DNA from: an uncultured delta proteobacterium
GTDB lineage: Bacteria; Myxococcota_A; Polyangia; Polyangiales; Houyiibacteriaceae
Direction: 5' to 3'
Assembly: GCA_963699755.1 (NCBI GenBank)
Contig: CAVOVB010000008.1
Span: 1 to 64,000, forward strand
Length of the DNA: 64,000 nucleotides
Position 1 is the stretch's first letter; each line of letters begins with the position of its first letter. Under the pieces are notes generated by a model. It ran no database searches, was not told the origin of the DNA, and saw nothing but the letters and a program-made list of their open reading frames with translations. Made by a program: the position numbers and the translations under genes. Shown here piece after piece: positions 4,620 to 9,790 of the stretch.

Positions 4620-5726
4620 ATGACGGTCATCAAACGAGACGGAAGATGGACGGTCGACTTCTGGTACGAAGGCAAACGCTACCGAAAGAAATCGCCGATC
4701 GATACGCAACGAGGCGCAAGGGAGTACGAACGGCTCCTCCTTCAGCGCGTGATGCAAGGCGAGCCGTTGACCCCTCAGACTGCGAAGTCCGAGGAGAGCG
4801 CCACTGCGCCCAGGTGCCAGTCCTTTCTCAGGGAATGGCTCGAGACGTATGCGAAGACGAACAACAAGCCGAGCGAGGTCTACTCGAAGGAGTTGATCAT
4901 CCGCTGTCACCTCTCGCCGTTTTTCGGCAAGCGGCGAGTCTCCGAAATCGGGGTTCGAGAGCTCGAGCGCTTCAAGAGCGCGCAACTCTCGAAGGGCTTG
5001 TCGCCGAAGACGATCAACAACCAGCTCTCGGTCCTTCGGAGGGCACTCCGCTCTGCTCAGGAGTGGGGCGTGATCGAGGTGGTGCCCACCATCAAGTGGA
5101 TGAAGGCGCCGAGAGCCGACTTCGATTTCCTCGATTTCGAGGAAGCCGAGCGTCTTTTCGACGCAACCGTCCCGGAGTACCGCCCGATGGTTGCGACCGC
5201 ATTGAAGGCCGGGCTCCGGCTAGGAGAGCTGCTTGCCCTGCGGCAAACGGACGTCGACCTGGTCAATGGCCAGATCTTCGTGAAGCGGTCCGTCTGGAAA
5301 AGGACCTTCGGGACTCCCAAGAATGGGCTCTCTCGACGGGTGCCGATTCCGCCGAGCCTGGTCCGGATACTGAGAGACCACCGGCACCTCCGCGGAGAGC
5401 TGGTGTTCTGTCAGGAGGACGGGTCTCTACTGACCGGCGACATGATCAAACGGGTGCTGCCTCGCGCCTGCCGAAAGGCGGGCCTCGACCGCACCATCCA
5501 GTGGCACGTGCTTCGACACACCTTCGCGAGTCATCTCGTGATGCGCGGCGAGCCGCTCAAGGTGGTTCAGGAGCTCTTAGGCCACGCCAACATCGAGGCG
5601 ACGATGATCTACGCTCATTTGAGCGAGTCACGACTCAAAGACGCCGTCGCCAAACTCGACGAACCGGCGCCGAGCCGACCCGACGATGGTCACTATTTGG
5701 TCACTCGCGATCGGCGGAATCGCTAA
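4620..5726 (+). CDS. Tyrosine recombinase / integrase
   Basis: N-terminal arm-binding beta domain; catalytic R (GLRLGEL), K (TPKNG), HVLRHTFAS, LGHANIEATMIY. Confidence 0.95.
   Translation: MTVIKRDGRWTVDFWYEGKRYRKKSPIDTQRGAREYERLLLQRVMQGEPLTPQTAKSEESATAPRCQSFLREWLETYAKTNNKPSEVYSKELIIRCHLSPFFGKRRVSEIGVRELERFKSAQLSKGLSPKTINNQLSVLRRALRSAQEWGVIEVVPTIKWMKAPRADFDFLDFEEAERLFDATVPEYRPMVATALKAGLRLGELLALRQTDVDLVNGQIFVKRSVWKRTFGTPKNGLSRRVPIPPSLVRILRDHRHLRGELVFCQEDGSLLTGDMIKRVLPRACRKAGLDRTIQWHVLRHTFASHLVMRGEPLKVVQELLGHANIEATMIYAHLSESRLKDAVAKLDEPAPSRPDDGHYLVTRDRRNR
5687..5705 (+). repeat. Direct repeat TGGTCACT x2, candidate integrase arm-type binding sites
   Basis: TGGTCACT at 5687-5694 and 5698-5705 (11-bp period), about 50 bp from the tmRNA 3' end. 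Confidence 0.5.
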
Positions 5727-5752
5727 CCTAAGCAATCACTTGTCTTAAGTAG

Positions 5753-6112
5753 TGGAGGCGGTGGGAATCGAACCCACGTCCGGAAATGGTCCAGAATGAC
5801 GTCTACATGCGTAGTTTGTGTTTTGAAATTCGCCTTGATTTGCGCCCACAAACAGGCTCGCACCAACGCTAGTGGTTCTTCATCTCGTCATTGCGCCGAA
5901 CCGCGACTCGCATAGACCAGCCCGTTCAAATGACGCCTCCGCTAGAAGCACAGGCAAGCTTCTAACTTCGACGGCTCCCTTGGCTTTACTTAGGCCGCGA
6001 GAGCAACTGCGTTATCGTTGGCAGTTGTACGTCCCAAACGTTTTTGCGTCGTGCTTGGGCCGACGGACACGCAACCAAACCTTCAACATCCCCGTCGAAA
6101 CCGGTCGCCCCC
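5753..6112 (-). ncRNA. ssrA: tmRNA; tag peptide ANDNAVALAA
   Basis: 5' GGGGGCGACCGGTTTCGAC, 3' T-arm and acceptor GTGGGTTCGATTCCCACCGCCTCCA with the Ala G:U pair; tag ORF gcc aac gat aac gca gtt gct ctc gcg gcc taa at 6022-5990; 3' CCA not fully encoded. Confidence 0.97.
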
Positions 6113-6220: not shown

Positions 6221-7093
6221 GTGGCTTCGTTCATGATGGGATTTTCCTTCGGTGTCGCGGCGGCGCTTTGCTGGGCCGCACTCGATGTGGTTCGAAAGGC
6301 GCTGGCCGGGAAGGCCACCCCGTCTGCGCTTGCCGCCTTCCTGCTGCTTGGGCAGGTGCCGTTCCTGGGTGCATGGGCGGCTTGCGATCAGACCTGGGTA
6401 ACCGAAGCGAGCTATTGGCCGCCCGCTGCGGCCTCGATGACTATGAACGCCTTCGCCAACGTCTTTTTCATGCGTTCGGTGCAGCTCTCGCCGCTGAGTC
6501 GCACCGTGCCGTTCCTGTCGCTCACTCCCGTCTTCAGCGCGCTCGTGGCAATCCCGCTCCTGGGGGAGGTGCCTGGGCCAATGCACTGGGCCGGGATTAT
6601 TCTGGTCGTCCTCGGGGCTCTGGTACTCAACAGCGACCTCGGCGACTCCTGGTGGAAGTCGGTCACGCACGAGAGGGGCACCCCTTTCATGATCGCGGTG
6701 GCGGTGCTCTGGGCCTTATCCACTACCCTCGATAAGCGGGCCCTCCCGCATGCCTCGCCGGCCTCGCATTCTTTCCTTCTTTCCGCGGGGAGCGCCGCGA
6801 TTCTCGGAACTTGGATGCTCGCGCTTGGAAAACACCGTGAGCTCCCCAAGGTGTTTGAGGCGCCGAGGGGACTGCAGGTGGGCATGATCGCCTTTGCGGT
6901 CGCGGCCTTGGCCCTCCAGATGGTGGCGCTTCAATGGCTTTGGGTTGCCGTCATCGAAACTTTGAAGCGTGCTTTCGGGGTCTTCGGCAGCGTGGTGTTA
7001 GGCCGCCTCTTCTTCAATGAGCCAATTACGAGCCGGAAACTGACCGCCGTCGTCCTAATGGTGGCCGGCACGAGCATTCTGGCTCTGGCGTAG
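6221..7093 (+). CDS. EamA/DMT family transporter
   Basis: About 10 hydrophobic segments; SPLSRTVPFLSLTPVFSAL...LLGEVP and LFFNEP motifs of tandem EamA domains. Confidence 0.85.
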   Translation: MASFMMGFSFGVAAALCWAALDVVRKALAGKATPSALAAFLLLGQVPFLGAWAACDQTWVTEASYWPPAAASMTMNAFANVFFMRSVQLSPLSRTVPFLSLTPVFSALVAIPLLGEVPGPMHWAGIILVVLGALVLNSDLGDSWWKSVTHERGTPFMIAVAVLWALSTTLDKRALPHASPASHSFLLSAGSAAILGTWMLALGKHRELPKVFEAPRGLQVGMIAFAVAALALQMVALQWLWVAVIETLKRAFGVFGSVVLGRLFFNEPITSRKLTAVVLMVAGTSILALA

Positions 7094-7178
7094 TGGGCTG
7101 CTGGACCGACGCGCGGGGGACTGTGCCCTTTTTCAGCGCTCCGTGGCGAAGGGCTTCCGAATCCGCTAATGGTGTAGG

Positions 7179-7667
7179 GTGGCCGAAGAAGAGAAGCCCC
7201 TTCCGCCCAAGCTCGACGTCGCCCGCTACCTCCTCGCCCAGGGCAGCGTCTTCGTCCACCTCGATCCGCGGATGGAGACAGTGGCGGTGCCACAGTCATA
7301 CCGCTCAGAACCTCAGCTGGTTCTGCAGATTGGCTTTGATATGCCGGTACCTATTAGTGATTTAGAGGTCGATTCGGAAGGTGTCTACGGCACTTTGTCG
7401 TTCAACCGCACCCCGTTTACCTGCCAGGTTCCCTGGGAAGCTGTATTTGCTCTGGCCGGCGACGACGGCCGCGGAATGGTTTGGCCCGACTCCATGCCTC
7501 ACGAAATCACGGAGGAAATCGAGCGGGAAGCAGGTAGGGAGCCTCCGCCGGTGGTCGAGGAGCGTCCGTCACTGAGGGTCCTGCCCGCGGTGGACGAACG
7601 AGAGGCCAGACCCTCGAGCCCACCAAGACCAGGCGAAAGACCTTCGTACCTGAAGGTCGTGAAGTAG
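7179..7667 (+). CDS. sspB: ClpXP specificity-enhancing factor SspB
   Basis: VYGTLSFNRTPFTCQVPWEAVFAL and a C-terminal ClpX-binding tail RPSYLKVVK. Confidence 0.85.
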   Translation: MAEEEKPLPPKLDVARYLLAQGSVFVHLDPRMETVAVPQSYRSEPQLVLQIGFDMPVPISDLEVDSEGVYGTLSFNRTPFTCQVPWEAVFALAGDDGRGMVWPDSMPHEITEEIEREAGREPPPVVEERPSLRVLPAVDEREARPSSPPRPGERPSYLKVVK

Positions 7668-7740
7668 TCGCCGAGCGACGCTGGTGCGGGCACTGGCGCT
7701 GGCGTCGGCAATGACGCGGACGCCGTACGGCCCCGAGATT

Positions 7741-7780
7741 AAAAAGTAACGGCCCGAAAGGGGGGGCTTTCGGGCCGTTA
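7741..7780 (-). terminator. Rho-independent terminator (third hairpin of the candidate sRNA)
   Basis: Minus strand TAACGGCCCGAAAG-CCCCCC-CTTTCGGGCCGTTA followed by CTTTTT; perfect 14-bp stem. Confidence 0.85.
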
Positions 7781-7885
7781 GAGAGATGGCGGGTTGGATG
7801 AAGTGGGGGGAAACAAGCCAATCCGCCGGTCTAACAACACTACGGGGGACGTGGGGGGACGTCTTCGCCGCAGCATTTATGTCAC
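7741..7885 (-). ncRNA. Candidate small RNA with three C-rich-loop hairpins (Pxr-like architecture)
   Basis: Bounded by a sigma54 promoter and a terminator; three stem-loops each display CCCCCC; no credible ORF. Confidence 0.7.
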
Positions 7886-7895
7886 CCGGTATACA

Positions 7896-7912
7896 TGCTA
7901 CTACCGTGCCAA
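7896..7912 (-). promoter_or_regulatory. Sigma54 (-24/-12) promoter
   Basis: Minus strand TTGGCACGGTAGTAGCA versus consensus TGGCACG-N4-TTGC; exact GG-N10-GC spacing; predicted +1 about 7885. Confidence 0.8.
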
Positions 7913-8171
7913 GTTTCTCGGGCTTGGAATCATGAATGATCTCATAGGGATTCTCGGACACGTCCGATTGAACGTCGTTCAGATCTGAAAAGTTTTTGAA
8001 GTTCTGCGACTTTGACCCCTAAATTCAACCCGATCGACCGAAGGGGTGCTCCTAGATGTGGGGTGGATCACAGAAGACACAGCCCCCGAATGACCCTTAC
8101 AGATGAATTACAAGTGTATCTGAGCTGGACAGGCGTTAGGCAACTAACTTTTCAATTGTGAAATCACTTTT

Positions 8172-9091
8172 TCAAACATGCATCATCGGGAGTCCGTAAT
8201 CGAGCAGCATCCGATGGCTCTTCGAGATGAGGAGCTTGCTGGAGCGGCCTCCGGGAGGCTCGACGAACCGGAAAACCTGGGGCGAAGCGCCTGCGGTCTC
8301 CCGAGCGAGCTCCGCGATTTGATGTGACGTCCCTGATACCGACACCACCCCACCTGCACCCGCATTCCGTGCAGATTTGATTGCAGAGTTGAAATCCGTT
8401 GTGCCTGCAACCCGCGCCTCGCTATCGCCAGGCACGGACTTCAAATGAACCACAACCTGGTCGTGTCGGGGCTCGTAGGCCTGGCGCAGCGCCTGCGGTA
8501 GGTGGCTGTCGTCGTTGTGGGCGATCAGCTCGACCCGCTCGCCAGAGAACCGAAGGGTGGTGCGGCCGGTATTCCGCATCCGGCCGAGCGGCCAGGGGAA
8601 CCGGTCGCGAACCCCAAGGAGGCCCGAGAGGATGGCAGCGATGATACCGCCATGGGTGAATACGATTGCCCGGCCGTCCGCTGGGATCCGCCCGCGTAGG
8701 TCAGCCAAGGCGGCGTCCGCTCGCCGAAACACCTCCGGCCAGCTCTCTCCGCCGCCGATTGCAAAGGTCCGCCGGTCTTTCAAGGCTGCGATTTGCGCTG
8801 GGAAGCGCTCGACGACCTGCTCCATGGTCAGGCCCTCCCACTCGCCTACGTGGATCTCACGCCAGGCCTGATCGTGCTCTACATCGACGCCCACGGACTT
8901 GGCGGTGTCGGCGGCCCGGCTCAAATCGGAGCTGAGCACCAGGTCGTAACGTTCCCCGAGAAGCGCAGCGCCGAGCGCTTCGACCTGGGTGCGCCCCATG
9001 TCGCTCAGCGGAGAGTCCCCTTGACCCTGCCAGACACCGTTGGCGTTCGACACCGACTGCCCGTGCCGAACGAGGCAGACTTCAACCCCGC

Positions 9092-9095
<4 letters not shown>
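8172..9095 (-). CDS. Histidine phosphatase (phosphoglycerate mutase-like) family protein
   Basis: [36 protein letters not shown] overlaps the clpP stop (ATGA). Confidence 0.9.
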
Positions 9096-9715
<620 letters not shown>

Positions 9716-9790
9716 GTCCTGAACCTAGTCCCTCCAGCCCTAGCTGCAATCCGGATTTTGAGGAGCAGGGTTCGGCGCTATGTTGAGAAG

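Follow-up and report, generated by a model that had tools for sequence, protein, structure and literature searches.

The stretch of DNA considered here, 64,000 nucleotides (nt) of contig CAVOVB010000008.1 (C8 below) from assembly GCA_963699755.1 and referred to throughout as the window, carries on its minus strand a small RNA (sRNA) that is a conserved, single-copy, genus-wide gene in uncultured Polyangiales myxobacteria. The gene lies behind a sigma-54-type promoter, and its predicted product folds into three stem-loops (SL1, SL2, and SL3), each with a run of cytosines in its loop. Comparisons at the level of sequence suggest that it is probably part of a divergent module of the Pxr/PxrR type, a variant with three C-run loops found outside the group in which Pxr was described. 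Pxr, which blocks fruiting-body development and is processed from a long to a short form, is the best-studied sRNA of myxobacteria and a textbook case in social evolution. A preliminary description of the window, made from its letters alone, had proposed an unannotated sRNA with a promoter, three C-loop hairpins, and a terminator on the minus strand between 7912 and 7741, and all of these elements are present in the sequence there (Table 1).

The loose sigma-54 pattern that marks the promoter is not rare by itself (46 matches in the 5.35-Mb genome, about the number estimated by hand from base composition), and the case for a gene therefore rests on conservation. A C6 run comes after just one of those 46 matches, the one described here. 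The folding energy of the 151-nt stretch is -59.5 kcal/mol, versus -34.9 +/- 3.0 kcal/mol for 200 dinucleotide shuffles, none of which was as stable (z -8.15), and a terminator scan of the region 7000-8600 recovered the SL3 hairpin and T-run. SL3 is followed by CUUUUU, with the T5 at 7745-7741 and the T-run on the minus strand only. The possibility raised at the outset of a many-copy REP-like repeat did not hold, as the genome contains one full-length BLAST match to the sRNA (all remaining matches are 34 nt or shorter) and one hit at E<=10, of 181.1 bits across 5.35 Mb, to a covariance model of the sRNA built from genus sequences only (R1). BLASTN identified the sRNA in 20 of 24 genus genomes (73-97% identity) and R1 identified it in all 18 genomes of the genus in a second sample; with the two samples pooled, it is present in 31 of 35 distinct genus relatives. 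The four genomes in which it was not found (86-97% complete) likewise yielded no SspB match at E<=1e-10, and nothing is therefore read into the absence of the sRNA there. Among 38 genus loci, the histidine-phosphatase gene accompanies the sRNA in 37 and sspB in 34, the misses being shorter loci. The members of the genus are recorded as Polyangiales, Polyangiaceae, or Myxococcota, in line with the earlier proposal of another myxobacterial lineage.

Base pairing has been maintained in these relatives through compensatory change. RNAalifold returned 43 pairs from 21 sequences, 14 of them with compensatory changes, and when 36 distinct sequences were aligned 99.2% of cells were paired and 15 of the 43 pairs showed changes on both sides. 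None of 500 shuffles was as good, and sliding the partners by 1-3 columns left 1-5 pairs with both-side changes. It should be noted that the 36-sequence alignment was fitted to the model and favors structure; the MAFFT-based count from 21 sequences (14 pairs) agrees with it. Covariation in relatives, a check suggested by the preliminary description, is thus found. By helix, both-side changes in the 36 sequences affect 8 of 16 pairs in SL1 (98.6% of cells paired), 4 of 9 in SL2, and 2 of 14 in SL3. The inner stem of SL1, GACGU/ACGUC, is invariant, as is the SL2 loop segment CCCCCACUUC in the 21-sequence alignment, and all three C-run loops are near-invariant across relatives. Single-base insertions and deletions in relatives exclude a protein-coding reading; they break every frame of the open reading frame (ORF) at 7569-7961 on the minus strand, which also lacks a Pfam match and was rejected as coding. 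At gathering thresholds, Rfam matches in the window are limited to the transfer-messenger RNA (tmRNA) and no family covers the sRNA. At E<=10 on 7650-8000 the best match is 6C RNA, at 29.5 bits versus a threshold of 47 (E 0.038), over 7744-7827, which corresponds to SL2 and SL3. A literature search on Pxr in Polyangiales and on small RNAs and sigma54 in Sorangium and myxobacteria returned no description of this sRNA. By comparative criteria the gene is very probably real, with the occurrence in 31 of 35 relatives, the covariation, and the lack of an Rfam family bearing out the earlier claim of an unannotated sRNA. For RNA catalogues, this represents a new and well-supported family of 36 distinct sequences with strong covariation.

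The promoter follows the sigma-54 consensus, TGGCAC-N5-TTGCW. Its TTGGCA core and GCAT are invariant in 21 aligned relatives, one of which reads TTGGCAT in place of TTGGCAC; the 5-6 nt spacer between the promoter boxes and ~10 nt downstream vary freely. Conservation restarts at TGACATAA (about 7884), 12 nt past the GC of the -12 element, and ends at the T-run; the +1 is therefore placed near 7885, the position originally predicted. A consensus scan of 7000-8600 identified no sigma-70-like promoters, and the genome encodes one rpoN gene. With the GG and GC elements, their spacing, rpoN, upstream boxes, and an activator all present, the locus is a sigma-54-type unit at the sequence level, and transcription from this promoter would be expected to depend on sigma-54.

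Upstream of the promoter, the proximal box TTCAGATCTGAA at 7989-7978 is unique in the 5.35-Mb genome and stands at the same distance in every relative whose promoter was located by script. Farther upstream, the -271 box of relatives reads TGCAGATCTGAA or TTCAGATCTGAA and is joined by a second box at -251; in the genome at hand the -271 box is degenerate (TGCATGTTTGAA) and shares bases with the stop codon of the gene upstream. No related-looking promoter with the same box was found elsewhere in the genome within two mismatches, and a tandem CAGATCTG pair on contig C1, considered as a second box site, was set aside as a simple duplication. The stretch separating the proximal box from the promoter contains GAGATCATTCATGATTC, in which none of 21 relatives departs from GAGATCA or GATTC. 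In two other genera (L045 and L049) AGATCATT recurs about 10 nt before TTGGCAC, as does GATCATTGA in L112. This element is possibly the site of a DNA-bending protein; it presumably resembles an IHF site. Additional conserved non-coding blocks, such as ACACTTGTAATTCATCTGTAAGGGT, TTGTGATCC, and TCGGTCGATCGGGTGCAATTTAGGGG, occupy 7995-8150 between the distal and proximal boxes. Conserved RNA structure in the 260 nt upstream of the promoter was considered and rejected (RNAalifold energies of merely -5 to -7 kcal/mol); the conserved blocks are more likely DNA sites, which suggests the involvement of further DNA-binding factors.

Comparison with true Pxr gives the sRNA its likely affiliation. Pxr gates fruiting in Myxococcus. 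According to two reports, pxr lies directly downstream of pxrR (nla19, encoding an NtrC-like activator), has a predicted sigma-54 promoter, an enhancer region, and three stem-loops, and originated at the base of Cystobacterineae (PMC5684412, PMC5568312). The former also places an inactivating C-to-A change in the SL1 loop and identifies an 8-bp segment of the SL3 stem as essential for RNA accumulation (PMC5684412). The sigma-54 promoter and three stem-loops that the preliminary description had given for Pxr are consistent with these reports, but the critical C-run that it had assigned to SL3 is not, the C-run lying in the SL1 loop and the critical part of SL3 being the 8-bp stem. This stem segment corresponds to GCGGCCCG/CGGGCCGC (primers GV611 versus GV683, PMC5684412), with which the Rfam consensus agrees; the same consensus has an SL1 loop of UU-C7-A and a short SL2, GGUGAGUCACC.

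Eleven Pxr loci were taken from metagenome contigs via the published Northern probe sequence, and as a positive control all 11 are Pxr by the Rfam threshold (91-129 bits). Searches of species genomes, in which RF01812 was found in 0 of 151 phylum genomes and at cut-off in none of 41 or 19, and the probe in 0 of 401, are uninformative on the occurrence of Pxr. In 10 of the 11 loci, R1 has a hit of 13.6-19.1 bits (E 7e-5 to 3e-3, with 15 kb searched) that coincides with the Pxr gene in position and strand; SL1 and SL3 are each aligned with their Pxr namesakes, and the SL2 part is deleted in Pxr. The base of SL3, CGGCCCG/CGGGCCG, represents 7 of the 8 bp of the essential Pxr segment, is near-invariant in the 36 sequences, and occurs as a hairpin with a T-run once in the genome. 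The loops can also be compared: that of SL2 reads UUU-C6-AC-UUCA, to be set beside the UU-C7-A of Pxr SL1, and the C-runs of both SL1 and SL2 are flanked by U(U) and AC, while the stem sequence of SL1 differs from that of Pxr SL1. The promoter of the Pxr loci is TTGGCAC-N5-CTGCTAA, and in 8 of the 11 loci (those with the promoter located) it is preceded by three boxes of the form T[TG]CA-N4-TG[AC]A, at ~-150, -110/-120, and -91/-100 from TGGCAC; in 5 of the 11 loci, CAGATCTG falls within one box, for example TTCAGATCTGCA. The sRNA family described here has three boxes of the same type, at -271, -251, and -78, with TTCAGATCTG[AC]A common to both sets, and the 20-bp spacing of its distal pair is that of the promoter-proximal pair at pxr. 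By a hand estimate from base composition, the loose box pattern is expected about 0.01 times per 300 nt.

A candidate for the protein that reads these boxes is encoded elsewhere in the genome. The sigma-54 activator domain (PF00158) has 26 matches in the genome and none on C8, in agreement with the earlier statement that the window holds no gene for an enhancer-binding protein. C-terminal ends of PxrR, of 81-157 residues and ending ...LG(V/I)SSTTLWRKMKR(L/I)..., can be read from the gene preceding pxr in seven Pxr loci; the other four of the 11 are outside this comparison (the wrong frame was picked in three and the fragment was too short in one). For all seven fragments the best tblastn match is C4:205149-206525, at 50-99 bits versus 53-87 bits for the runner-up where one was present. 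Further, among the C-terminal tails of 24 activators in the genome, this is the one with TTLWRKMKRL (...LGLSPTTLWRKMKRLRLEWP), and the other 23 differ. Its product is a response regulator of 458 residues with REC-AAA-HTH_8 architecture, has one ortholog (76-95% identity) in 28 of 30 genus relatives sampled, and is encoded beside an HD-domain gene and a gene for a solute-binding protein. The co-occurrence of the same box type and the same reading helix is the strongest argument for a PxrR-type activator at the sRNA promoter. The C4 activator would thus bind the boxes at about -78, -251, and -271 and activate the sigma-54 polymerase, leading to a transcript that spans about 7885 to 7741.

A locus from the metagenome-assembled genome (MAG) of an uncultured proteobacterium, L064, contains two tandem C-loop sRNA units (L064:30-160 and L064:274-386). 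The locus has a sigma-54 promoter and two C7 loops. Its downstream unit carries the 8-bp SL3 stem of Pxr without change and reaches 27.1 bits on Rfam Pxr, all three elements being aligned; on R1 the locus scores 22.3 bits. L064 may be an intermediate linking Pxr to the forms in Polyangiales. Three other weak hits (L171, L175, and L176) were not used; L176, at 30.6 bits on Pxr, consists of the end of a coding gene and its terminator.

Several observations weigh against a Pxr/PxrR-type module. Rfam Pxr (RF01812, gathering score 80 bits) has no match on 7650-8000 even at E<=10, nor in any of 20 other C-loop loci at E<=1. The scores of R1 on Pxr are low (14-19 bits), and the motifs in common with Pxr are short, GC-rich, and were noticed post hoc. 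The proposed PxrR orthology rests on 81-157 C-terminal residues in a one-way comparison, no histidine kinase gene flanks the C4 activator, and pxrR is not adjacent to the sRNA here, unlike at every described pxr. The distances between boxes and promoter also differ, at -78, -251, and -271 here versus about -91 to -152 in most Pxr loci. Moreover, the short SL2 of Pxr has no counterpart here, the middle hairpin being 40 nt with a large C-run loop, and the SL3 loop of Pxr lacks a C-run. The sRNA is accordingly not a member of Rfam Pxr as that family is defined: it fails both the model threshold and linkage to pxrR. The Pxr model check suggested at the outset thus gave no support, the best match being 6C, below its threshold.

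These same features could be explained if the sRNA were an independent, merely analogous C-loop sRNA of sigma-54 type, its likenesses to Pxr being due to convergence or to recruitment of a PxrR-like activator. Apart from the missing Rfam Pxr hit, the different neighborhood with no adjacent activator gene, the different middle hairpin, and the two extra C loops, such an origin would account for the comparably weak scores against unrelated C-loop families, 29.5 bits for 6C and 18 bits for ar7, and for the finding that Actinomycetota loci of the same architecture reach 25-34 bits on R1, meaning that architecture alone earns such scores. It would, however, require four independent coincidences with Pxr, namely box type with pair spacing, recognition helix, SL3 stem core, and loop flanks, and it does not anticipate an intermediate form such as L064. 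An analogous origin is considered unlikely on this evidence, and of the two options left by the preliminary description, a distant homolog of Pxr or a new analogous family, kinship with Pxr appears better supported: boxes, helix, SL3 core, and R1 matches speak for it and the Rfam Pxr model does not.

If the sRNA is a Pxr-type regulator, its C-runs are the likely points of contact with messenger RNAs. The C-runs of SL1 and SL2 share the context CCCCCCAC, and the three exposed runs imitate a C-rich anti-Shine-Dalgarno sequence that, by analogy with other sRNAs, would pair with G-tracts. No match to Hfq was found in the genome. Pxr itself binds near the Shine-Dalgarno sequence of several mRNAs in the Hfq-less M. 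xanthus, according to a preprint (10.1101/2025.09.11.675593), and 6C RNA binds mRNA through C-rich loops without chaperones, according to another report (PMC6486639). The C6 and C7 loops of the present sRNA may similarly recognize G-tracts in or close to Shine-Dalgarno sites, with no need for Hfq. Candidate targets would be leaders with a G5-6 hairpin loop followed by a G5-6 tract just before the start codon, as occur in front of genes for a tolQ/exbB-like protein and an outer-membrane protein (OMP)-like protein, and two C loops could hold one such two-G-tract leader simultaneously. The two genes lie at C2:414419-415138 and C7:164049-164966, respectively.

In the tolQ/exbB-like leader (Pfam MotA_ExbB; G000 C2:415139-415190, L209/L240), a small hairpin with a UGGGGGG loop is followed by GUGGGGGG 14 nt before the AUG; the leader is short and intergenic, and its two G6 tracts are kept in most of 29 genus sequences. 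In the OMP-like leader (G000 C7:164967-165080, L208/L210), the two G-tracts are a GGGGGU loop that closes a covarying hairpin of 9 bp and, between this hairpin and the AUG, GGGGGA; in the more divergent relatives the G loop is replaced by a GGGG...CCCC stem. The promoter of the OMP-like gene is preceded by an inverted repeat, GTTCCG-N7-CGGAAC, that is conserved in the genus. The encoded protein has no Pfam match and owes its label to a signal-like N-terminus and a C-terminal Phe. Predicted binding of each leader to the sRNA of its own genome has a median of -9.8 kcal for tolQ and -10.1 kcal for OMP, approximately the best 5% of the leaders of this genome. Genome-wide, G6 tracts fall within -25..-1 of 38 of 4144 predicted starts versus 10 internal control windows, a count inflated by a choice of start codons that favored GGGG. 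Most of the 14 hits with two G-tracts before a start were discarded as leaders, being internal to genes by Pfam coordinates. Duplex and cofold screens part 5' regions from controls weakly.

It should be noted that this target work is exploratory and that parts of it count against the proposed mode of action. The gene caller was crude (based on G+C content at third codon positions) and missed at least one real gene, that with the His_Phos domain. The duplex screen is weak, with 853 5' regions versus 572 internal controls at <=-20 kcal. A predicted energy of -12.5 kcal (the best 1%) is reached by just 4 of 19 tolQ leaders and 2 of 18 OMP leaders, and high scores are likewise obtained with G-rich shuffles of the OMP leaders. 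The rpoN mRNA ranked first of 3111 leaders in this genome and was nonetheless rejected as a target: across relatives its median is -3.2 kcal, which is shuffle-like, and 1 of 19 relatives reaches <=-12.5 kcal. The rpoN leader (G000 C6:132480-132560, L177/L178) can form 12 bp with the 3' half of SL1 (GGGGGCGUGGGG versus CCCCACG-U-CCCCC) in this genome alone. A second OMP-like copy at C1:1836958-1837864 is interrupted by a TGA and has a leader near-identical to that of genome G023, and an identical gene of 442 residues is present on two contigs (C3:789538-790866 and C9:11406-12734); both observations fit the 9% contamination reported for the assembly, or strain mixing.

Rather than pairing with mRNAs, the three C-rich loops could sequester an RNA-binding protein in the manner of a CsrB-type sponge. 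The repetition of the motif in three loops, the invariance of the inner SL1 stem and SL2 loop well beyond structural need, and the lack of a Hfq-type chaperone among the matches in the genome would all be compatible with protein titration, yet Pxr and 6C are reported to pair with mRNAs, and conserved G-tract leaders exist in this genus. A protein-titrating RNA is on these grounds regarded as very unlikely, and pairing with mRNAs is retained here as the working mechanism of a Pxr-type sRNA.

Evidence of expression comes from Logan contigs of relatives, in which neither strand nor ends are readable. Six metatranscriptome runs hold small parts of the sRNA stretch, and five were examined. The tmRNA is deeply covered in these runs (depth 350-2350, versus 2-22 for contigs of the sRNA in the same runs), and the runs therefore hold real RNA. 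The most informative is X18, where a contig of 196 nt at a depth of 22.4 covers 7737-7858 along with 24 letters 5'-ward to about 7882; depth in the same run is ~9 for the phosphatase gene and >1000 for the tmRNA, and no contig covers sspB. Less favorable to a discrete transcript, the X18 contig runs ~50 nt past the terminator, and contigs in X15, X16, and X19, at depths of 2-5, extend into the promoter or the DNA upstream of it. Collectively, the metatranscriptome contigs are a weak hint of expression of the sRNA and not proof. That the locus yields no functional transcript, and consists of conserved DNA sites and a terminator that serve neighboring genes, is compatible with the unproven expression (from contigs of relatives) and with a hairpin between convergent genes, but is rendered extremely improbable by compensatory changes in three separate helices, a promoter exactly one promoter-length before the restart of conservation, a T-run on the minus strand only, and an sRNA-only contig at a depth of 22.4 in a run with none for sspB.

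Table 1. Positions in the window of the sRNA gene, its predicted elements, and the genes around it
Feature	Coordinates	Strand	Basis
sRNA gene, promoter to T-run	7912-7741	minus	sequence reading
Predicted sRNA transcript, ~145 nt; +1 near 7885, 3' end in T-run 7745-7741	7741..7885	minus	conservation limits and covariance-model hit
Sigma-54-type -24/-12 promoter, TTGGCACGGTAGTAGCA	7912-7896	minus	sequence and conservation in 21 relatives
SL1: long stem, inner stem GACGU/ACGUC, C6 loop at 7858-7853	7877-7836	minus	fold and covariation
SL2: stem with large loop UUUCCCCCCACUUCAU, C6 at 7810-7805	7827-7788	minus	fold and covariation
SL3: 14-bp terminator hairpin, C7 loop at 7766-7760, stem base CGGCCCG/CGGGCCG	7780-7747	minus	terminator scan
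Candidate proximal activator box, TTCAGATCTGAA, a perfect palindrome at -78 from TGGCAC	7978..7989	minus	conservation
Candidate distal box pair, 20 bp apart, -271 and -251 from TGGCAC	8151..8182	minus	motif count in relatives
Conserved GAGATCATTCATGATTC between proximal box and promoter, about -58 to -42	7927..7943	minus	21-relative alignment
Tyrosine integrase gene	4620-5726	plus	context
tmRNA	5750-6112	minus	only window match at Rfam gathering thresholds
EamA transporter gene	6221-7093	plus	context
sspB, convergent with sRNA gene	7179..7667	plus	Pfam SspB
Histidine-phosphatase-family gene, upstream of sRNA on the same strand	ORF 8172..9749	minus	Pfam His_Phos_1

Among the neighboring genes, that with the His_Phos_1 domain shows similarity in relatives starting at about residue 110 of the ORF at 8172-9749. 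The end of the integrase gene lies 24 nt from the 3' end of the tmRNA (4620-6112), with the sRNA on the opposite side of the tmRNA; such an arrangement of integrase and tmRNA is typical of islands inserted at ssrA.

The sRNA also belongs to a wider set of loci of similar architecture. A pattern scan for promoter boxes and two C6 runs in genomes of named species returned at least 120 stretches, of which 80 loci were listed; among these 80 are at least 9 members of the genus, all metagenome-assembled (122-183 bits on R1). Outside the genus, R1 has weak hits of 22-37 bits in 6 of 132 other genomes sampled from the order, one of which (G143) was not used. L045, L047, L049, and about ten further Myxococcota loci among the matches listed have TGGCAC-N5-TNGC and two hairpins with C6-C9 loops, the second being the terminator; two-hairpin loci among the matches listed include L045, L047, L049, L064, L067, L070, L074, L093, L105, L112, and L129. 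An ACGGCCC/GGGCCGU stem is common to L047, L049, and SL3 of the present sRNA, a GATCATT element just upstream of the promoter is common to L045, L049, L112, and the present sRNA, and L064 and L112 both have the box TTTC(A/G)GATC(T/C)GAA. No adjacent activator gene was found at L045, L047, or L049, and no description of these two-hairpin RNAs was found in the literature searched. Ten loci from Coriobacteriia/Actinomycetota MAGs among the matches listed (L052, L053, L057, L061, L063, L071, L081, L099, L119, and L124) have TGGCAC-N5-TTGC(T/A), followed by a pair of hairpins whose loops are of the CCUCCCCCC type and by a terminator, and five of the ten score 17-29 bits on R1. None of 13 such Actinomycetota-type loci scanned reached any Rfam gathering score. 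By their sequences, these loci appear to be in effect a 6C-like RNA behind a sigma-54-looking promoter.

A broader proposal, offered tentatively and possible rather than probable, is that Pxr/PxrR was not invented by the fruiting Cystobacterineae but belongs, as a single branch, to an ancient sigma-54 sRNA switch spread across Myxococcota. The RNA would have been uncoupled from its activator gene in the small-genome Polyangiales of sediments, would have gained C-runs on all three hairpins, and would clamp two-G-tract leaders, thereby controlling envelope genes (tolQ and an outer-membrane protein) and not development. If the affiliation with Pxr is true, a Polyangiales relative with Pxr boxes and a PxrR-like activator pushes back the origin of the module and the module is separable from fruiting-body control. 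The parts open to testing are the 12-bp box, the one activator among 24 put forward as a candidate, three loops that may act as seeds, and two conserved G-tract leaders.

Several known systems resemble the sRNA to differing extents. RsaE/RoxS, sX13, and CcsR/cuckoo are sRNAs that target Shine-Dalgarno sequences through C-rich motifs, and LuxO-Qrr is a dedicated pair of activator and sRNA. The present system resembles them in general logic, with C-rich loops directed against G-rich ribosome-binding sites and a sigma-54 activator with an sRNA as its output; those systems belong to other phyla and involve other regulators, and the likeness is one of logic, with no relation in sequence claimed. 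The two-hairpin Myxococcota RNAs have the same type of promoter, C6-C9 loops, and a terminator, but differ in having two hairpins versus three, in their neighborhoods, and in scoring 11-37 bits on R1. The 6C RNA of Actinobacteria (RF01066) likewise has hairpins with C6-7 loops, two of which align to SL2 and SL3. In contrast to 6C, which is found in a different phylum and has two hairpins, the present sRNA has three (SL1 being extra) and scores 29.5 bits, below the 47-bit gathering score. Further, 6C in Corynebacterium is described in one report as having a SigA/SigB-dependent promoter (PMC5014011), versus the sigma-54-type promoter here.

The closest resemblance is to Pxr/PxrR of M. xanthus and other Cystobacterineae. 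Unlike Pxr, the sRNA is ~145 nt as opposed to 109 nt, bears C-runs in three loops as opposed to one, has a large-loop hairpin in place of the short SL2, and goes undetected by the Rfam model. Its putative activator is encoded on another contig, its neighbors are sspB and a histidine phosphatase gene, and its hosts are uncultured Polyangiales, outside the suborder in which pxr is said to have arisen. Like Pxr, it is found in a Hfq-less myxobacterial host and has a sigma-54-type promoter, three stem-loops, an upstream box type with one pair ~20 bp apart, an activator helix of TTLWRKMKRL, a C-run loop flanked by UU and A(C), and a terminator stem core of CGGCCCG/CGGGCCG.

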